From: Escherichia coli
Lineage (GTDB): Bacteria; Pseudomonadota; Gammaproteobacteria; Enterobacterales; Enterobacteriaceae
DNA: 64,000 bases
Reading direction: 5' to 3' (one strand)
NCBI RefSeq assembly: GCF_041886205.1
Contig: NZ_CP169029.1
Positions 8,589 through 58,605 of this stretch are shown here, piece after piece. How positions within the stretch are numbered: the stretch's first letter is position 1; every line of letters starts with the position of its first letter. The translations under genes and the position numbers were made by a program. The notes beneath the pieces are model-generated. The model ran no database searches. It saw only the letters and a program-made list of their open reading frames with translations, and was not told where the DNA came from.

Positions 8589-8876
8589 ATGAACGAAGTT
8601 GTAAATTCAGGCGTGATGAACATTGCGTCTTTGGTTGTATCGGTGGTGGTTCTTCTTATCGGGCTCATCTTGTGGTTTTTTATCAATCGTGCCAGTTCTC
8701 GGACTAACGAACAGATTGAACTGCTTGAGGCGTTGCTGGATCAGCAAAAACGTCAAAATGCACTGTTACGTCGTTTGTGCGAAGCAAACGAACCTGAGAA
8801 AGCAGATAAAAAGACCGTTGAGAGTCAAAAATCGGTTGAAGACGAAGATATTATTCGTCTGGTCGCCGAACGATAA
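8589..8876 (+). CDS. yebO: small membrane protein YebO
   Basis: ORF track 95 aa with single N-terminal TM helix; conserved position. Confidence 0.75.
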   Translation: MNEVVNSGVMNIASLVVSVVVLLIGLILWFFINRASSRTNEQIELLEALLDQQKRQNALLRRLCEANEPEKADKKTVESQKSVEDEDIIRLVAER

Positions 8877-8888
8877 TCCTTCCTCAAT

Positions 8889-8925
8889 CTTGAGTAACCC
8901 CGTCGTTGAAGGGTTACTCAATTCA
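8889..8925 (+). terminator. intrinsic terminator after yebO
   Basis: gagtaaccc-cgtcgttgaa-gggttactc hairpin just after yebO stop. Confidence 0.5.
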
Positions 8926-9544
8926 TCCTGATTATACGCACTGCCATGGTGCAACTGCTTCAAATTAAAACTCTGGTCTGACTTCAAATAATTATCATAT
9001 TATTTATTTGCGTAACGGGATATCAGAAAAAGATATTTTCCTCATTAATTTATTAGGATGTTTACATCGGATTTGTGATTAAGCGTGGTATTATTTATTA
9101 GCGAAACGTTTCTCTCTTGATTTTTTGCTCATTCATCAATTTTTCTTATTTTAAATTTTCAATCCCTTTGGGGATTGACTTCTCTTTAGGGTAATTGATA
9201 GCCGTTAACTGACTGTTTTATGAGAAAAAGTGATATAACTTTTTATTCATTGCATAGCAAAAAATGTGATATTGCACGCACTATGTAATAACTTCTCCCA
9301 CTGGCCTGGAACAACTGAACTTATTGAACTATGTTAGAAACTACGCCAGTTTAAGTATCTGCCTGAACTGGCAAGGTTAAGCACAATGATATATCGGCGC
9401 GTATTCCGTTGCATAAGTGTGCAAAAAAAGTGGAAGACGTATCGAGATTTGTGCGTCTGATCGAGACATGTTTAAAAATGGCTTGCCATAATTAACGTTG
9501 TATGTGATAACAGATTTCGGGTTAAACGAGGTACAGTTCTGTTT

Positions 9545-11454: not shown

Positions 11455-11685
11455 GTCCTGACCGGGGTATCCATAAAACACATCATCGCCCCCAGCAAAC
11501 ATGCATACATGAACAACAAGCCGCGATGGTTTTCGCGTTCATGCAGGCATAGCGATTGATGTGCATATGGTCTCGCCTGACTGAAAGTATTCAGTCCGTA
11601 CGTGCCACGTTTTGCAACGAGTATGTTGACACGTACATTTCCGGAATCTGGAAATCGGCTACTCCCCAAATGAGGGCGCAACCTT
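11455..11685 (-). promoter_or_regulatory. yybP-ykoY-type Mn(II) riboswitch in the mntP 5' leader
   Basis: Minus-strand leader contains GGGGAGUAGCCGAUUUCC near its 5' end, matching the conserved yybP-ykoY core; long structured leader before mntP ATG; boundaries approximate. Confidence 0.55.
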
Positions 11686-11810
11686 AACATATTTTGAGAA
11701 TATAAAACAACTGTTGGAATATATTATTTCATTGCTTTATTGATAACGATTTTCATTTGGATTTATATATCAATGAAACGTTAAAATAAATAACAAATAA
11801 GGGAAGAGGT

Positions 11811-11870
11811 AATATAGCCTAAGCTATGTCTGATTATTAAAAATACACTAAACATAGCTTTGGCTAAATT
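11811..11870. promoter_or_regulatory. two MntR-box-like palindromic half-site pairs upstream of the mntP promoter
   Basis: aaTATAGCctaaGCTATGTct and AAACATAGCtttgGCTAaat resemble the MntR operator remembered as AAACATAGC-N4-GCTATGTTT; not verified. Confidence 0.3.
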
Positions 11871-11876
11871 CATAAC

Positions 11877-12335
11877 TTATTGAGTTGAAACGAGAAGCTT
11901 ATAAATTTTTTCCAGATCGTCGATATTTCGAACGCGGATTAACAGCCGACGCTGTTCTAATTGCATCACCAACACGCCATCTTCCGACAAGTTCATCGCT
12001 TTGATTCGGCTATATTCAATCCAGACATTGGCGAAGAAAAAACCTTTTTGTTTAAAGATGATCTTCGGAACGCGGATCCAGAATATATAAAAACCCATCA
12101 GAGCCAGTGCGCTTAATAACCATGTCGTTATTAACGCACCATGATTCGTGACGTTGTTATAGATAAGAATGACAATCAATCCGACGAAGATAACGCTATC
12201 GATGCGACCACGCCGGAGCAAAGGAATTGCCAGCAGGGTGGGGCCGTTACGGCGGGGCATGATGAACTGATCGTAGATCGCGAAGGCCAGGAGTGCGGCG
12301 ATGAAAAGAATCAGTATCAGGTCCGTGATTGTCAT
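11877..12335 (-). CDS. yobD: DUF986 inner-membrane protein YobD
   Basis: ORF track 152 aa, hydrophobic; conserved position downstream of manZ. Confidence 0.8.
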
Positions 12336-48754: not shown

Positions 48755-49576
48755 ATGATGCACAGGTTGAATCTCAATGGCTATGAACCCGACCGACACC
48801 ATGAAGCCGCGGTCGCATTTTGTATTCACGCCGGAACGGATGAGTTAACCAGTCCTGTAGATCAGCACCGCAAAGGACAGCTGATACTGGCATTACATGG
48901 TGCAATTACCTGTACGGTGGAAAATGCTTTGTGGATGGTGCCGCCACAATATGCGGTTTGGATACCGGGCGGGGTGGAACATAGCAATCAAGTGACAGCT
49001 AACGCTGAACTCTGTTTTCTGTTTATCGAACCCAGCGCAGTGACAATGCCGACAACCTGTTGCACATTGAAAATATCGCCCTTATGCCGGGAATTAATTT
49101 TAACTCTGGCAAACAGGACGACGACTCAGCGTGCTGAGCCGATGACCCGCAGATTAATTCATGTCCTGTTTGATGAACTCCCTCAGCAGCCACAACAACA
49201 GCTGCACCTACCCGTTTCTTCTCATCCTAAAATCCGCGCGATGGTGGAGATGATGGCGAAAGAGCCCGTCGAGTGGGGGTCATTGGGGCAATGGGCTGGC
49301 TTTTTTGCGATGAGTGAACGCAATCTTGCCCGACTGATAGTAAAAGAGACGGGGTTGAGTTTTCGCCAGTGGCGACAGCAGTTACAGCTGATTATGGCGC
49401 TTCAGGGATTAGTGAAAGGCGATACTGTACAGAAAGTTGCTCATACGCTGGGGTATGATTCAACAACGGCCTTTATTACTATGTTTAAGAAAGGCCTGGG
49501 GCAAACGCCAGGCCGATATATTGCGGGATTAACTACTGTTTCCCCACAATCAGCGAAACCAGACCCGCGGCAATAA
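48755..49576 (+). CDS. yeaM: AraC-family transcriptional regulator YeaM
   Basis: ORF track 273 aa; cupin-like N-domain and C-terminal AraC HTH. Confidence 0.85.
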
Positions 49577-49979
49577 GCGGGCCAACCGGTACGCCGCGAA
49601 ACAGCGCTACGCCTAAAACAGTGCCCACCAGCAGCCCAGCAACCAGTTGCGGCTGGCTGCCCATTAACGTCACGCCGCGCCCACCCAGCCAGGAGACAAT
49701 AACGCCTACTGCAATTGCCACCAGCGATTTCCAGTTCAGAAACGAGTGAATCAAGGTTGAGGGCGGTAGCGTCCCGCTGGCGATGGGGGCCATAACGCCA
49801 ATCGTCAGAATGATTATCCCGATACTTAGCCCCTGTTTTTCAATCCACGGGAAAAAGGTGCTTAACGGTGTGACGCGGACAATGATCAACACCAGAATTG
49901 AAACGGCGACAGTGGTGTTATGACTGATAAAGCCCAGCGCAGCTAACCCGAGCAGGATCAGCAAAGTGACATCAAACAT
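49533..49979 (-). CDS. yeaL: UPF0756 membrane protein YeaL
   Basis: ORF track 148 aa; hydrophobic; 3' end overlaps yeaM 3' end by about 44 nt (convergent). Confidence 0.8.
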
Positions 49980-50148
49980 CGTGGTTTCCTTGCCAAAAAA
50001 TAATAAGCCTGCTTACTTTACGCTTGCTGCAGGAAGGAAGTAGAAAATCTTTACGTTTTTTGCATAAAAAATCAGGCGAACTGTCATCAAACTGCCATTT
50101 GTGCACGCTAACAATAACGTGAAAACAGCTATCTCCCGGGGGCATGCT

Positions 50149-50253
50149 ATGAACGATCAAATGTTCGTCGAGACACTGATTATCACGTCATCGTTTTTTG
50201 CCATTGCTGTTGTGCTGGTTTTGTCCGTTCTGCTTATTGAACGGACAGGCTAG
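50149..50253 (+). CDS. yoaI: small membrane protein YoaI (34 aa)
   Basis: Hand-translated [34 protein letters not shown]; below ORF-track cutoff; coordinates approximate. Confidence 0.55.
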
Positions 50254-50757
50254 TTACGCAGTGCGGCGGAAATTGACCAGTTCTGGTTGCGCAATGCGCA
50301 AATAATCCGCGGTTTTCAAAATAACGGATTTATCCAGCATACCTGCATTGAAGGCGATTTCATCAAATCGTTCGAAGAGTAGAGGGTCGGCAACCAGTTT
50401 GAGTTTTGGATGGAAGCTGAAAGGGGGGATCGCGCCGAAGACACAGCCTGTGAGTTCATCGACTTCCGCCGGGCTGGCCAACGAAGCGCGTAATCCGCCT
50501 ATATGGCTGGCGAGTTGGCTCAGATCGGCCTGTTGATCGGCTGCGAGGATCGCCAGAACATGTTGATTTACGCCATTGCCTTTGACTTTACATACCAGTG
50601 CCTTAGCTCCCTGGCCTAAAGCGGTGCCACGAATTTCTGACACCGCTTCACATTTACCTACCGCTTCATGGGTAACGACGCGGAAGTTAGCACCTTCTTG
50701 TGATAATAAAGCGATTAACCGCTGATGCGTCACGCTTCCTTTAGCCATTTCAGTCAT
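50254..50757 (-). CDS. yeaK: YbaK/ProX-family aminoacyl-tRNA deacylase YeaK
   Basis: ORF track 167 aa. Confidence 0.85.
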   Translation of the reverse strand: MTEMAKGSVTHQRLIALLSQEGANFRVVTHEAVGKCEAVSEIRGTALGQGAKALVCKVKGNGVNQHVLAILAADQQADLSQLASHIGGLRASLASPAEVDELTGCVFGAIPPFSFHPKLKLVADPLLFERFDEIAFNAGMLDKSVILKTADYLRIAQPELVNFRRTA

Positions 50758-50799
50758 TTCACGCTCCTGAGATTACAAGCAAACAACCACAGAAGGTTA

Positions 50800-52290
50800 T
50801 CATGAACGGCTGTTTTTGTTCTGCTTATTGACATATAAACGCTCATCGGAAGCTTTATACGCATCATGTAACGTATCGTTTTCTTTCATCGCGTAAATAC
50901 CGGAAGAGAAGCCAATCTCTTTCTGCGGCGCGATATGTTGCAGACGTTTTTCGATACGTTCAGGCAGTTGTGCTGCAATTTGCGGCGTCGAATCGACAAG
51001 AATGATGCAGAATTCATCGCCACCGAGTCGGATGGCATAATCACTTTTACGAATCGATTGTTTAATCGCCTGAGCTAATAACGTAATCGCTAAATCCCCC
51101 TCCTGATGACCGAGGGTGTCATTTATTTGCTTTAACTTGTCCATGTCAATTGCAATAAACATCACCGAAGAACCGGCTTGCACCAGTTTCTGCAACCGCT
51201 GCTCCAGTTCAGGGGTTAAAATTTTGCGATTATACAGTCCAGTCATCGCATCACTAATATTTTCTCGCGACACATTTTGGTATAAACGGAAGTGCATCCG
51301 CACCATATTCAGCAAAATTAACGCCGTCAAAATCCAGAACAGAACGCTTTTCCACGAAGACGTGATAAAGTAAAGAATATCAATGGATAACGAGACACGA
51401 ATGCCGCCCGGTAAGTCATGGACGTAACTGACATACTGGAACAGATTATCTTCGCTCTGGTTGATGATAATGTCGCGCCCCGAATCGGTATCGGTTAGCG
51501 TGACATTGAGAAAACGCCAGAGGAGAGGGCGGTCATGAGTGTAAAAGATATTCCGCAAATTGTTTTTGTTAATATCCAGCAGCACAATCCCTTTTAGCTG
51601 CCCTGCGACATATACCGGCGTCAGCAAACTCATCACGTTCTGTTTAGTACGCTGATCCTGGTAAATGCTCGACAATACGGTACGCCCGGTAAATACCTTT
51701 TCAATATCTTTGCGATCGATGCCAATACTTCCTGACTGCAGGAAGGACCAGTTATTCATCGCAAAGTATTCAACATTAACCGGCTCATAAAAATAGACAT
51801 AGCGGTCATTGAGATCGAGATAATAGTGAAATTTCTCTTCGGCCATCCCAAGACCTGAACCGTAATCATCCTGGTGGCGGTTGCCTTCCACTGCCTGATC
51901 AAAAGCGGGTAATAGTGCTGCAGCTTCCACAATTGTGTCGCAGTCAGTGGATGCGGTTTGTAGTGTGCCGCGTAAGCCCGGGTATTTATGGGCAGTCAGG
52001 TTTAAGCCATGGGTATTATTGGCAGACTCAAAAGCCTCGCAGATGGCGCGCCGCTGTTCTGGCGACACTTCCGACTGCTCAGCAGCGAGAGCGCGCATCA
52101 CATGCGCGGCAATACTCTGATTCTGATACTTATCATAAAGAAAGGAGGAGTCTGCTTTCTGCACGATATAGCGCAGATAGGCACTCATTGCTCTGTCGCT
52201 GGCGACAAGTTCAAAAATAAGGAAGGAAGATGTCAGCACAATGACACTTGCGGCGATAAAATGCCGGAGCATTCTATGGTGCAATTTCAT
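50800..52290 (-). CDS. dgcJ: diguanylate cyclase DgcJ (YeaJ), membrane sensor-GGDEF
   Basis: ORF track 50800..52470; start moved to MKLHHRMLRHF giving 496 aa; GGDEF motif RLGGDEFCII. Confidence 0.85.
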   Translation of the reverse strand: MKLHHRMLRHFIAASVIVLTSSFLIFELVASDRAMSAYLRYIVQKADSSFLYDKYQNQSIAAHVMRALAAEQSEVSPEQRRAICEAFESANNTHGLNLTAHKYPGLRGTLQTASTDCDTIVEAAALLPAFDQAVEGNRHQDDYGSGLGMAEEKFHYYLDLNDRYVYFYEPVNVEYFAMNNWSFLQSGSIGIDRKDIEKVFTGRTVLSSIYQDQRTKQNVMSLLTPVYVAGQLKGIVLLDINKNNLRNIFYTHDRPLLWRFLNVTLTDTDSGRDIIINQSEDNLFQYVSYVHDLPGGIRVSLSIDILYFITSSWKSVLFWILTALILLNMVRMHFRLYQNVSRENISDAMTGLYNRKILTPELEQRLQKLVQAGSSVMFIAIDMDKLKQINDTLGHQEGDLAITLLAQAIKQSIRKSDYAIRLGGDEFCIILVDSTPQIAAQLPERIEKRLQHIAPQKEIGFSSGIYAMKENDTLHDAYKASDERLYVNKQNKNSRS

Positions 52291-52470
52291 GATAAATGGC
52301 ACTCCTTCGGTTAGTGAAACGAGAAAACCAGATAAAGTTCGATTGCGGCCTGGCACAGGGGCGCTAATTATACTCATCTCTGCGCCGCTGGGGAGGGGAA
52401 ATTTAGGGGTAATAGTAATAAATTGTATGCAAAAGCCACGCAAAAAGCATGGCTCTGAATATTTTTGCAC

Positions 52471-53946
52471 TTAAATATGATGAATAATCACTTTGTTGCC
52501 CCCCTCGCTTTTCGCTTCGCGTAAGGCTTTATCTGCTTCCGTCATGACAAGCGAGATATTACGCGTGTCACCCGTTGAAAAAACCGTGCCAATACTGATG
52601 GTCATTTGTTCAGGAACATCATATCTGTTACTAAAGCCGGTCAGGAGTTCGACATTTTTACGCATACGTTCCGCAATGATTTTTGCCTGGGCACTATTGA
52701 GTTCGGTAAATAGCAAGCCAAACACCTCACCCTCCAGTCGCGCTAAAATATCATCGGGGCGGATGCTTTGCTGGATAATATCGACAATTGAAACCAGCAC
52801 TTTATCACCCACACGATGTCCCCATTGGGCATTGATGCGTTTGAACTGATTAATATCAACCAGCATGACACAGAAGTCCTTAACAACAGGTCGCGACAAT
52901 AATGACTCTACGCTGTTGAAAAAGTAGCGCCGATTATAAATATTGGTCAGCACATCATGAACTGCCAGTTTGCTGGAGAGTTGCAGTTCCTGAAAAATGT
53001 TATAAATCAGAAAAGACACAACAAACAGTTTACTGGAGACTTCAATCCCGCGACTGATGTACCAGATGGTGTAATTATACTCATCCAGAGTCAGTAGAAG
53101 TAAGTTGCAGCATAGCGATGCCAGACATAATAATGCTATTAATGGCCATAGTTCGCTGGCTAATCGTGTACGCATGATAATAAAGAACAGTAAAAATGCC
53201 CACAGACAAACCAATATTTTTGTATAGTTGATTCCCCAGGTCGCAGTATGGTTGTCAGGACAGTAGTCGACGACATACAAAGAATAGTCAGCGTTATAAC
53301 TGCTCAGATTGTGTGCCAGAAGGGGAAAAACTAAAAAAGGAATCAGCGCCAGCAACAGGATTCCCGTTTTTTTCTTATTGTTGTCAAGGATGTTGTCTTT
53401 TCCATAACAAAAGAGTGCCAGCGAGGTTAAACAAATAAAACTGAGTTGGCGGAAAATATAGAAAATAGAAACATCATTCGACTTTGTCTGGATCAGTGTA
53501 CTGCCGTTAATTGGTTTATGGATAATTACAATGGTTTCAACTAAATAGATAAGGCCACTTAAAAATGCAAGGCTTAAAATGAGTGTTGGTAAAATTTGTT
53601 TGTTAGTGAAATATTTCATTAACATGAAAAGAAAAATGACGGCGTTAAGGAAAAACAAAGCCACAACAACTATCAGGTAATTCATCTGTGGGATGAGTTT
53701 TACATTTGTGTTTTCGTTATATAAGGTAGTAATGCAAAATAAAATTAACGTCAGCAATAAACTGAAAATAAAAAAGCTTTGAGCTTTTAATTTTTGTGTA
53801 CCCATAGAAACCATAAAAAGGAGAGCAATGTGAGTGCTGGATTTTATTGATGGCAGAGATATATAGTTTTGACCAAGATCAATTTTCGTTAACGATAAAA
53901 AATATTTAAAGAATAACCCCATGGAAATACGTGTTGACTGAATCAT
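52471..53946 (-). CDS. cdgI: CdgI (YeaI), membrane protein with degenerate GGDEF domain
   Basis: ORF track 491 aa; multi-TM N-domain; GGDEF position reads RLEGEVFGLL (degenerate); strongly AT-rich gene. Confidence 0.85.
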   Translation of the reverse strand: MIQSTRISMGLFFKYFLSLTKIDLGQNYISLPSIKSSTHIALLFMVSMGTQKLKAQSFFIFSLLLTLILFCITTLYNENTNVKLIPQMNYLIVVVALFFLNAVIFLFMLMKYFTNKQILPTLILSLAFLSGLIYLVETIVIIHKPINGSTLIQTKSNDVSIFYIFRQLSFICLTSLALFCYGKDNILDNNKKKTGILLLALIPFLVFPLLAHNLSSYNADYSLYVVDYCPDNHTATWGINYTKILVCLWAFLLFFIIMRTRLASELWPLIALLCLASLCCNLLLLTLDEYNYTIWYISRGIEVSSKLFVVSFLIYNIFQELQLSSKLAVHDVLTNIYNRRYFFNSVESLLSRPVVKDFCVMLVDINQFKRINAQWGHRVGDKVLVSIVDIIQQSIRPDDILARLEGEVFGLLFTELNSAQAKIIAERMRKNVELLTGFSNRYDVPEQMTISIGTVFSTGDTRNISLVMTEADKALREAKSEGGNKVIIHHI

Positions 53947-54059
53947 TTTTCCGAATGATTGTTTTCTGGAACTAAATTATGTAAAGGTTATGCTGTCATA
54001 TTTAAAGCGATTGTAAGCTAATGTATGTAATAAATGAGATAATTTACAGTAAGCTAAAA

Positions 54060-54088
54060 ATCAGCCAGGCGATAATGACCTGGCTGAT
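54060..54088 (-). terminator. intrinsic terminator after yeaH
   Basis: atcagccagg-tcattatcg-cctggctgat hairpin followed by T-run on minus strand. Confidence 0.45.
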
Positions 54089-54092
54089 AGTT

Positions 54093-55388
<1,296 letters not shown>

Positions 55389-55440
55389 CTACATTTGCCA
55401 ACTGTATGCTACGCCTGTGTTGCCGCTTCTCAGGCCCACG

Positions 55441-55475
55441 GTTCGCTGTCGTTGTAGGCCCGGTAACATGTGTAC
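55441..55475 (-). terminator. hairpin (possible attenuator) between yeaG and yeaH
   Basis: ggcccggtacacatgttaccgggcc palindrome in the 112 bp yeaG-yeaH spacer. Confidence 0.45.
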
Positions 55476-55488
55476 CGGGCCAGGGTTG

Positions 55489-57423
55489 TTAAGACGATTT
55501 ACGTACGCGCAAATACCATTCGCACAGTAAACGCACCTGTTTACGGGTGTAGCCTTTTTCCATCATACGGTCGACAAAGTCGTCGTGTTTCTTCTGCTCG
55601 TCGGTTGACGTTTTGGCGTTAAACGAGATAACCGGCAACAGCTCCTCGGTATTGGAGAACATTTTCTTCTCGATGACCGTGCGCAGTTTTTCATAGCTGG
55701 TCCAGTTCGGATTGCGTCCGCTGTTATTCGCTCTGGCGCGCAGTACGAAGTTAACAATCTCGTTGCGGAAATCTTTTGGATTACTGATCCCCGCCGGTTT
55801 CTCGATTTTCTCCAGCTCGGCGTTAAGAGACTCGCGGTCAAACAGCTGCCCGGTATCCGGATCGCGATACTCCTGATCCTGAATCCAGAAATCCGCGTAG
55901 GTAACATAACGGTCGAAAATGTTTTGCCCATATTCGGAATAGGATTCAAGGTAGGCCGTCTGGATCTCTTTGCCGATAAACTCGGCATATTTCGGGATCA
56001 GATAACCTTTCAGGAACTCCAGATAGCGTTCTGCCTGCTCTTGTGGGAACTGCTCGCGCTCAATCTGCTGTTCCAGGACGTAGAACAGATGGACCGGGTT
56101 TGCTGCCACTTCTACATGATCGAAGTTGAACACGCGGGAGAGGATCTTAAACGCAAAACGCGTCGACAGACCGTTCATCCCTTCATCGACACCGGCGTAG
56201 TCACGATATTCCTGATACGACTTGGCTTTGGGATCGGTGTCTTTCAGACTTTCGCCATCATAAACCCGCATCTTTGAATAAATGCTGGAGTTTTCTGGCT
56301 CTTTCAGGCGCGAAAGAATGGAAAAACGTGACAGTGTTTCGAGCGTGCCAGGGGCGCATGGGGCGTGAGTCAATTCACTGTGATTAAGCAATTTCTCGTA
56401 GATTTTGATCTCTTCGGAAATGCGCAAGCAATACGGCACCTTCACGATGTAAACACGATCGAGGAAGGCTTCGTTGTTTTTGTTATTACGGAAAGTGACC
56501 CATTCGGACTCGTTCGAGTGTGCGAGAATAATCCCGTTGAACGGCAGGGCGGAGATACCTTCCGTCCCGTTGTAGTTACCTTCCTGAGTGGCGGTTAACA
56601 AGGGATGCAGCACTTTAATCGGTGCTTTAAACATCTCAACGAATTCCATGATCCCCTGATTGGCGCGGCACAGCGCACCGGAATAGCCGTAGGCGTCCGG
56701 GTCATTCTGCGCGTAGTGTTCGAGTTTACGAATATCGACTTTCCCAACCAGCGCGGAGATGTCCTGGTTGTTCTCATCGCCGGGTTCCGTTTTGGCGATA
56801 GCAATTTGTTGCAGAATTGACGGCCAGACCTTCACTACCCGGAACTTAGTGATATCGCCACCAAATTCATGCAGGCGTTTTGCCGCCCACGGCGACATGA
56901 TGGTGCCGAGATAACGGCGAGGAATGCCATACTCTTTTTCCAGAATCTGCGCATCTTCCTGCGGATTGAAAAGACAGAACGGATGATCGTTGACCGGGCT
57001 ACGCTCACCGTTCGCGCTCAATACATAAATCGGTACGAGCTGCATTAATGATTTCAGTCGCTCAGCAAGCGATGATTTACCCCCACCCACAGGCCCCAGC
57101 AGATACAGGATTTGTTTCTTCTCTTCCAGCCCCTGAGCCGCGTGTTTCAGATAAGAGACAATCTGTTCAATCGCGTCTTCCATGCCGTAAAACTCTTCAA
57201 ACGCCGGATAACGTGCAATGACCCGGTTAGAAAAGAGTCGAGAAAGTCTGGGTTCCTGGGCTGTATCGACCATGACAGGCTCACCGATAGCCATCAATAG
57301 CCGCTCAGCCGCGTTGGCATAAGCACTGCGATCTTGCCGACAAGTGGTAAGAAACTCCTGCAGTGTGAACTCTTCGTCCTTGGCAGCTTCATATCGCTGG
57401 CGATAGTGATCGAATATATTCAT
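55489..57423 (-). CDS. yeaG: PrkA-family serine protein kinase YeaG
   Basis: ORF track 644 aa; P-loop LLGPVGGGKSSLAERL; PrkA architecture. Confidence 0.9.
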   Translation of the reverse strand: MNIFDHYRQRYEAAKDEEFTLQEFLTTCRQDRSAYANAAERLLMAIGEPVMVDTAQEPRLSRLFSNRVIARYPAFEEFYGMEDAIEQIVSYLKHAAQGLEEKKQILYLLGPVGGGKSSLAERLKSLMQLVPIYVLSANGERSPVNDHPFCLFNPQEDAQILEKEYGIPRRYLGTIMSPWAAKRLHEFGGDITKFRVVKVWPSILQQIAIAKTEPGDENNQDISALVGKVDIRKLEHYAQNDPDAYGYSGALCRANQGIMEFVEMFKAPIKVLHPLLTATQEGNYNGTEGISALPFNGIILAHSNESEWVTFRNNKNNEAFLDRVYIVKVPYCLRISEEIKIYEKLLNHSELTHAPCAPGTLETLSRFSILSRLKEPENSSIYSKMRVYDGESLKDTDPKAKSYQEYRDYAGVDEGMNGLSTRFAFKILSRVFNFDHVEVAANPVHLFYVLEQQIEREQFPQEQAERYLEFLKGYLIPKYAEFIGKEIQTAYLESYSEYGQNIFDRYVTYADFWIQDQEYRDPDTGQLFDRESLNAELEKIEKPAGISNPKDFRNEIVNFVLRARANNSGRNPNWTSYEKLRTVIEKKMFSNTEELLPVISFNAKTSTDEQKKHDDFVDRMMEKGYTRKQVRLLCEWYLRVRKSS

Positions 57424-57858
57424 GGTATGCCGTCCTTTCGTTTTTTAGCACAGGTTAAGAGCCGTTCATATGAATAGTAGAGGCTCCCGGAAGAGGTAAA
57501 CTGAACGACGTCTCTTGCTAAAACACAGCAACTCTCATGCCATTTTATCGACGATGAGAACAACGTGCCCGGTGATACACCTTCAAAATTAAGCGTAGAT
57601 GGCAAATGGAAAACTTGCCTGCACGGCTTTCTTAATTTCAATGGCATATCAACAACTCATCCATAAATTTTGCATAATTAATGTAAAGACCAGGCTCGCC
57701 AGTAACGCTAAATTCATTTGGCTGTAAGCGCGGTGTCATCCGCGTCAGGAAAATTAAACAGTTACTTTAAAAAATGAAAACGTAAAAAGGTTGGGTTTCG
57801 ATGTATTGACGGGTAAACTTTGTCGCCCGCTAAACATTTGTTTAAGGAATGATTAATT

Positions 57859-58605
57859 GTGACCAAACTCAAACTTCTGGCACTTGGAGTGCTTATCGCA
57901 ACGTCTGCAGGCGTAGCGCACGCTGAAGGTAAATTTTCCCTGGGCGCAGGCGTAGGTGTCGTTGAACACCCATATAAAGATTACGATACCGATGTTTACC
58001 CAGTACCGGTAATCAACTATGAAGGCGATAACTTCTGGTTCCGTGGCTTAGGTGGTGGTTACTACCTGTGGAATGACGCAACGGATAAACTTTCAATTAC
58101 CGCTTACTGGTCGCCGCTTTACTTTAAAGCGAAAGACAGTGGCGATCACCAAATGCGTCACCTGGATGACCGTAAGAGCACCATGATGGCTGGTCTGTCT
58201 TATGCTCACTTTACCCAGTACGGTTACCTGCGTACCACCCTGGCTGGCGATACCCTGGATAACAGCAACGGCATCGTCTGGGATATGGCCTGGTTGTATC
58301 GTTACACCAACGGTGGCCTGACCGTGACTCCGGGTATTGGTGTGCAGTGGAACAGCGAAAACCAGAACGAATACTATTATGGCGTATCGCGCAAAGAGTC
58401 CGCTCGCAGCGGTCTGCGTGGCTATAACCCGAACGACAGCTGGAGCCCTTACCTGGAGCTGAGCGCCAGCTACAACTTCCTCGGCGACTGGAGTGTTTAC
58501 GGTACCGCACGCTACACCCGTCTGTCTGATGAAGTTACTGACAGCCCGATGGTGGATAAATCCTGGACTGGCCTGATTTCTACCGGGATCACCTACAAAT
58601 TCTGA
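57859..58605 (+). CDS. mipA: MltA-interacting outer-membrane protein MipA
   Basis: ORF track 248 aa; signal peptide; beta-barrel-like C-terminal ...GITYKF. Confidence 0.9.
   Translation: MTKLKLLALGVLIATSAGVAHAEGKFSLGAGVGVVEHPYKDYDTDVYPVPVINYEGDNFWFRGLGGGYYLWNDATDKLSITAYWSPLYFKAKDSGDHQMRHLDDRKSTMMAGLSYAHFTQYGYLRTTLAGDTLDNSNGIVWDMAWLYRYTNGGLTVTPGIGVQWNSENQNEYYYGVSRKESARSGLRGYNPNDSWSPYLELSASYNFLGDWSVYGTARYTRLSDEVTDSPMVDKSWTGLISTGITYKF

Follow-up and report, generated by a model that had tools for sequence, protein, structure and literature searches.

The gene cdgI (yeaI) lies at positions 52471..53946 (- strand) of the window, a stretch of 64,000 nt from Escherichia coli contig NZ_CP169029.1 (RefSeq assembly GCF_041886205.1), and specifies a protein of 491 aa according to both the list of open reading frames (ORFs) and the RefSeq annotation of identical DNA. 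Two of its properties are considered here, the degenerate active site of its GGDEF domain and its AT-rich composition. The DNA between 50500 and 55500 is 100% identical to that of B-type E. coli, BLR(DE3) and ATCC 8739 being two of the strains, and in these genomes the gene order is yeaG, yeaH, cdgI, dgcJ and yeaK, all on one strand. K-12 CdgI (b1785) shares the same neighbours and active-site motif and is identical at 489 of 491 residues, the sole differences being P24L and M92I, the first of which falls in an N-terminal part that is probably not translated. CdgI is a well-known E. coli gene, and the points concerning its cyclase motif, its binding of cyclic diguanylate (c-di-GMP), its AT-richness and H-NS have already been published.

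The protein consists of a MASE4 integral-membrane sensor domain (residues 88–319; 52990..53685, - strand), followed by a GGDEF domain (residues 328–485; 52492..52965, - strand). The first was recognised by Pfam PF17158 (E 1.6e-48; 165.6 bits, cut-off 28.4) and contains seven or eight hydrophobic helices, as judged from hydrophobic segments and predicted helices. The second matches PF00990 over the entire profile (positions 1–161 of 161; E 9e-45; 152.7 bits, cut-off 23.8) as well as TIGR00254 (123 bits, cut-off 37.4), and has a predicted local distance difference test score (pLDDT) of about 85–94 in an AlphaFold (AF2) model, which was built with 18 sequences and used just for confidence along the chain. 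Among the NCBIfam models only the generic GGDEF domain model scored above cut-off for CdgI, and no protein-specific model did so. The name assigned by the NCBI annotation pipeline (PGAP), 'sensor domain-containing diguanylate cyclase', is based solely on that generic model, and the annotation of the gene is inconsistent across RefSeq.

Catalytic residues, I-site and orthologs

The original prediction described CdgI as having RLEGEVFGLL where active cyclases have GG(D/E)EF, and concluded that it is not a cyclase but a catalytically inactive protein that binds c-di-GMP. This sequence is indeed found at residues 403–412 (52711–52740), and when CdgI is aligned to active cyclases, the check that had been proposed, the solved enzymes carry GGEEF at the position where CdgI has EGEVF. 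The degenerate active site (A-site) is E405-G-E-V-F409 (52720..52734, - strand). Not only the intact GG(D/E)EF of an active cyclase is missing, but also some residues of the DxD..FKxxND and YxAK..GRN motifs, for which solved active cyclases read DID..FKxIND and LYEAK..GRN, and CdgI reads DIN..FKRINA and LREAK..GGN. In all, the alignment gives the changes G405E, E408V, D366N, D373A, Y476R and R483G, while D364, K369, N372, H377, D381, R403 and K479 are kept. Gly483 (52498..52500, - strand) replaces the arginine of GRN, and we take this position to be the counterpart of the phosphate-binding R446 of PleD. In the PleD structures this arginine, four residues past the conserved lysine, contacts the phosphates of guanosine triphosphate.

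The inhibitory site (I-site) is intact. It was recognised by alignment as R396-P-D-D399 (52750..52761, - strand), an RxxD motif followed by five residues and then E405, which is the canonical spacing before the A-site and the arrangement expected of an I-site receptor; 18 homologues show almost no variation at R396 and D399. A similar combination is known from PopA of Caulobacter, which has a degenerate A-site and a conserved RxxD I-site, and whose binding of c-di-GMP serves signalling and not synthesis; unlike CdgI, a MASE4 membrane protein, it is soluble, belongs to the response regulators and controls proteolysis. For CdgI itself, Sarenko et al. (2017) described the A-site as degenerate and the I-site as intact, showed that the purified His-tagged GGDEF domain binds c-di-GMP (their Fig. 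S4), and in two-hybrid assays observed strong heteromeric contacts with a number of other GGDEF domains (PMC5635695). A table in Spurbeck et al. (2012) lists EGEVF and a D-to-A change in YeaI (PMC3484386), and Cimdins-Ahne et al. (2023) describe YeaI/CdgI as 'catalytically non-functional' (PMC10459773). A full-text literature search for 'EGEVF' gave nothing relevant among the matches listed. The work of Sarenko et al., the intact I-site, and EGEVF together with D366N, D373A, Y476R and R483G all favour the predicted c-di-GMP-binding protein over a cyclase, and make, as far as sequence can, a strong case that CdgI is catalytically inactive.

A protein search returned close relatives of CdgI in all Escherichia lineages, and relatives with 57–62% identity in Citrobacter. 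When peptide words from CdgI were sought in species-representative genomes, only five Escherichia loci came up, exact words reaching close relatives only. In an alignment of the proteins from the protein search, the A-site motif was EGEVF, EGDVF, EGEEF or EGNVF in the Escherichia lineages, EGEVF in a metagenomic relative of 77% identity, EGKRF in another of 64% identity, and GGEEF in the Citrobacter proteins. The degenerate group is cleanly split from the Citrobacter group at three positions: residue 405 is E in the former and G in the latter, residue 476 is R, S or Q as opposed to Y, and residue 483 is G as opposed to R. Among the degenerate sequences the first glycine of the motif is glutamate in every Escherichia lineage, and motif positions 3 and 4 drift (E/D/N/K and V/E/R, respectively), as is expected where a site is no longer under selection. 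The members of this group all carry GGN, except for one E. albertii sequence (P0010) with SGN, so that Gly483 is kept in all, and GRN is found in the Citrobacter proteins and in solved cyclases.

The Citrobacter proteins (P0020, P0024, P0025) are encoded, like CdgI, at the position X of the order yeaG-yeaH-X-yeaJ-yeaK, as is the 77%-identical relative, and this common position indicates that the Citrobacter genes and cdgI are positional orthologs. The likeness extends to a low GC content (0.37–0.38) and to a start that aligns with Met48 of CdgI. They differ from CdgI in that GGEEF, DID..ND and LYEAK..GRN are all intact, and they are predicted to be active cyclases. Within E. coli the closest full-length relatives are DgcT (YcdT) and DgcX, which share the MASE4 and GGDEF domains, but they retain GGEEF and the tyrosine and arginine of YxAK..GRN, and are active cyclases; relatives of the DgcT/DgcX kind showed about 38–46% identity to CdgI in the protein search. 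Together, the three have been described as a MASE4-GGDEF family that underwent a recent radiation in E. coli and also occurs in related genera (PMC10459773).

The slot between yeaH and yeaJ is variable. Escherichia and some Citrobacter have a cdgI-type gene there, in C. freundii a methyltransferase gene in the opposite orientation precedes yeaJ (L011 6329–7099), and in Intestinirhabdus yeaK comes straight after yeaH, cdgI and dgcJ both being absent (L014 6288–6428). Two other enteric contigs have unrelated genes after yeaH and no gene of the cdgI family. This is the patchy distribution of a variable slot, and it bears on the origin of the gene.

Base composition, regulation and start codon

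The gene had also been described as visibly more AT-rich than its neighbours, for which a windowed GC calculation was the proposed check. The GC content of cdgI is 38.3%, below the values of yeaH (49.1%), dgcJ (45.9%) and the window as a whole (49.8%), and just 1.1% of all 1476-nt segments are at or below the value of cdgI, the minimum being at 52831 and overlapping the gene. Among the 49 ORFs of at least 150 aa, cdgI has both the lowest GC content (mean 0.512, standard deviation (sd) 0.035; about -3.7 sd) and the lowest GC content at third codon positions (GC3; 0.425, mean 0.552, sd 0.069; about -1.8 sd), so that the low GC includes synonymous sites, as in the class of horizontally acquired, H-NS-silenced genes. 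The AT-richness is a gradient and not uniform: GC rises from 30.7% in codons 1–100 to 34% in codons 101–200, 39.4% in codons 201–320 and 44.6% in the GGDEF part. A trough of about 30% GC at about 53450–54050 extends into the upstream spacer (31.5% GC), and most of the AT-richness is carried by the 5' third of cdgI and the region upstream. Other stretches of the window where 500-nt GC falls below 0.35 lie at about 8751–9500, 11601–12200 and 29851–30550, and are comparable to the 5' region of cdgI.

A foreign origin is one explanation for this composition. Another, judged doubtful although it is the strongest of the alternatives considered, is that low GC is no trace of foreign DNA and reflects the amino acids of a membrane domain, an AT-rich leader mis-annotated as coding, and selection for an H-NS-bound regulatory region. 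Part of the low GC does reflect amino-acid content, because the deficit is greatest at codon positions 1 (0.417) and 2 (0.307), and GC3 is only modestly below the mean. Codons 1–47 resemble non-coding DNA and match the spacer in GC, and cdgI is a core gene in E. coli. The Citrobacter orthologs are equally AT-rich, with GC3 of 0.42–0.45 where their yeaG and yeaH have 0.57–0.63, which indicates that low GC predates the genus Escherichia; it has been kept since the Escherichia–Citrobacter split with no drift towards genome GC.

Several observations nevertheless speak for horizontal acquisition. The GC3 of cdgI is still the lowest of the 49 ORFs, and low GC is not forced by MASE4 alone, since one MASE4-GGDEF paralogue, from another enteric, is at 47% GC with a GC3 of 0.58. 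The yeaH–yeaJ slot holds other genes, or none, in the relatives described above. A DgcX-like MASE4-GGDEF paralogue in E. coli (L017 4001–5332), with 40% identity to CdgI, an intact GGEEF and only 29% GC, adjoins phage tail-fibre and tail-assembly genes. In the literature, three independent methods call yeaI foreign: GIST places it in a genomic island, and Nakamura et al. as well as Lawrence and Ochman predict a foreign origin (PMC3661553). The pattern fits an AT-rich gene family that arrived either by an old insertion or by repeated exchange at a variable site, and the suggestion of an old horizontal acquisition, which draws on these published predictions, the variable slot and the low GC common to the Citrobacter orthologs, has held up as the more probable origin.

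Silencing by H-NS, which had been raised as a possibility, is likewise in keeping with published work on H-NS binding. Panyukov and Ozoline (2013) described an AT-rich, 304-bp 'promoter island' inside yeaI (Table 1, entry 1868534_304), which is bound by H-NS in all of the chromatin immunoprecipitation (ChIP) studies they considered (PMC3661553). If the start 1868534 is taken as an older MG1655 coordinate, with an offset of about 1976 bp and cdgI at 1870385 in NC_000913.3, the island maps roughly to +125 to +429 of the annotated coding sequence, i.e., to 53517..53821 (- strand), an approximate placing that coincides with the GC minimum (about 0.30). The A/T-rich yeaI region also binds Dps well in vitro, as reported by the same laboratory (PMC4433220). 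No paper on the de-repression of yeaI in an hns mutant was found in the literature. Among other regulators, SrsR binds upstream of cdgI and activates it in stationary phase (PMC9181523), and RstA binds the yeaI promoter in O157, which the cited paper interprets as repression (PMC6824119). CdgI was undetectable in cells and toxic when overexpressed, and repression by CsrA has been cited (PMC5635695).

The spacer between yeaH and cdgI (53947..54092, - strand) holds a terminator-like hairpin after the yeaH stop codon (54060–54088, - strand) and a promoter-like site, TTTACA-16-AACAAT (53958–53985, - strand), which was found by a consensus scan and is conserved across Escherichia; together they suggest that cdgI is transcribed on its own. 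A search of 49000–58000 against Rfam, at E values up to 0.1, gave no match. On the other side of cdgI, the ORF containing dgcJ (50800–52470, - strand) extends on the upstream side by 60 codons past the annotated start of dgcJ (52290) and abuts the cdgI stop codon, so that the 180-nt spacer between the two genes is an open frame, in which no terminator-like site was detected.

The annotated start of cdgI is probably too far upstream. When the upstream region was aligned in six Escherichia sequences, codons 1–44 showed no codon periodicity: their variable sites numbered 10 at position 1, 10 at position 2 and 12 at position 3, whereas further downstream 63–72% of variable sites are at position 3. 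The ratio of nonsynonymous to synonymous substitution rates (dN/dS) for codons 1–44 is 0.5–1.7. ATG1 is replaced by TTG in E. whittamii and by ACC in one lineage, and single-base indels bring in-frame stop codons into the 5' frame in two Escherichia lineages. One indel lies between ATG45 and ATG48, so only the ATG of Met48 (53803..53805, - strand) is conserved and in frame in six of six sequences; it aligns with the Citrobacter starts, and lies 287 nt from the yeaH stop, similar to the 278–296 nt spacers of Citrobacter-type loci. In E. albertii and other lineages the protein given in RefSeq has 447 aa. The pLDDT of residues 1–52 is only 24–32, which is weak evidence since few of the aligned sequences cover the N-terminus. 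The promoter-like site ends about 12 nt before ATG1, and a transcript beginning there would have hardly any leader ahead of that codon. A point against re-annotation is that no recognisable Shine-Dalgarno sequence precedes ATG45 or ATG48, and a weak GGA is found four bases 5' of ATG1, so initiation in E. coli proper may still occur there. On balance, the conserved start is probably Met48, giving a protein of about 444 aa rather than 491, and annotated codons 1–47 (53806..53946, - strand) are probably a 5' leader.

Function and alternative explanations

The reading that best accounts for these results, with a probability of roughly 0.8 for the whole, is that CdgI is a non-catalytic receptor or regulator acting through its I-site, encoded by an AT-rich, H-NS-bound gene, and derived from an active MASE4 cyclase. 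CdgI would then be an inner-membrane protein, the product of a core Escherichia gene, with MASE4 as its N-terminal sensor and, at the C-terminus, a GGDEF domain which, given EGEVF and the four further substitutions at 366, 373, 476 and 483, most likely makes no c-di-GMP. Binding of c-di-GMP at the I-site (R396xxD399) may allow it to act as a receptor, through heteromeric contacts between its GGDEF domain and the GGDEF domains of other cyclases and phosphodiesterases, possibly under the control of a signal that MASE4 senses. The gene and its AT-rich upstream leader of roughly 290 nt would be bound by H-NS and essentially silent under laboratory conditions, with CsrA adding further repression, SrsR activating the gene and RstA binding at its promoter. 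Its ancestor would have been an active MASE4 cyclase of the kind that is intact today in the yeaH–yeaJ slot of some Citrobacter. A more specific version of the history, in which Escherichia turned such a cyclase into a c-di-GMP receptor through G405E, loss of Y476 and R483G, and in which codons 1–47 belong to a conserved, AT-rich, H-NS-bound leader of about 290 nt, is held somewhat more readily than its opposite.

There are a number of points that weigh against the receptor reading, and some of them are also those that would favour CdgI being a weak or conditional diguanylate cyclase, with its phenotypes arising from c-di-GMP synthesis. Retention of the Mg-binding D364, the base-contacting N372 and D381, and K479 means that some nucleotide binding is possible. 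Spurbeck et al. (2012) count YeaI as one of the proteins that have 'verified diguanylate cyclase activity', and complemented a yeaI deletion with the cyclase WspR in no-salt lysogeny broth (PMC3484386), and the paper on RstA credits Sanchez-Torres et al. (2011) with showing that yeaI raises c-di-GMP (PMC6824119); these statements of activity are secondary citations. The accessible literature yielded no assay of CdgI for cyclase activity in vitro, and the two-hybrid contacts from which downstream targets are deduced were made with overexpressed domains. For the regulatory part, a crude scan for sigma-70 consensus sites between 50500 and 56000 gave 7 sites against 10.2 expected, with no enrichment in cdgI, so the published promoter island was not reproduced by it. 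The high-affinity H-NS motif TCGATAAATT, allowing up to two mismatches, occurs 101 times in the window against 70 expected from shuffles, but the excess is spread over the window and the 5' region of cdgI has one match, i.e., no enrichment.

Even so, a cyclase is an unlikely explanation. In every Escherichia lineage the first glycine of the motif has been replaced by glutamate and the positions that follow have been allowed to drift, and the arginine of GRN and the tyrosine before AK have been lost. Complementation by WspR fails in glycerol medium (PMC3484386), and the terms used by specialists are degenerate and non-functional (PMC5635695, PMC10459773). The cyclase name given by PGAP could be cited in support of activity, but it comes from the generic domain model only.

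Selection is still acting on the protein. Comparisons of the window sequence with five other Escherichia lineages gave dN/dS values of 0.05–0.11 both for codons 48–320 (MASE4 part) and for codons 321–491 (GGDEF part), and of 5426 complete E. coli genomes 5424 gave a match, 5408 of them with at least 80% coverage. Low dN/dS and near-universal presence indicate that CdgI is maintained by purifying selection, and on these grounds a pseudogene was rejected. That cdgI is a decaying relic without function is therefore very improbable, even though no expression is detectable in laboratory culture (PMC5635695) and truncated forms and insertion sequence (IS) elements are seen, since both domains are under strong constraint, the full-length copy is intact nearly everywhere, and deletion and transposon mutants have phenotypes in motility and biofilm formation. 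For example, transposon insertions in yeaI raise the motility of ST131 (PMC5425062). CdgI is best read as a cyclase converted to a non-catalytic signalling protein.

There is local variation around this overall conservation. Truncated forms of 281–345 aa (clusters P0013, P0019 and P0023) stand for hundreds of database members and are common in protein databases, and IS1 lies within cdgI in one strain (ET474, H29), which together point to local loss in some lineages. In the neighbouring dgcJ, IS1 splits the gene in at least one strain (H1), and IS elements are present in the interval, with dgcJ still annotated, in two others (H3 and H4).

For cdgI, the motif and the AT-richness are textbook-level points that bring nothing new; the small additions made here are the Citrobacter orthologs with GGEEF, the purifying selection, the GC gradient and the probable start at Met48. 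Two by-products bear on how the gene is handled. The label of diguanylate cyclase carried in most RefSeq E. coli genomes overstates what CdgI does, and the annotated start, which probably lies 47 codons too far upstream, matters when expression constructs or reporter fusions are designed. The pair of a predicted active ortholog in Citrobacter and a degenerate one in Escherichia is a clean natural system for reversion work. CdgI is among the least understood members of the c-di-GMP network of E. coli, and may be a receptor that tunes other cyclases.

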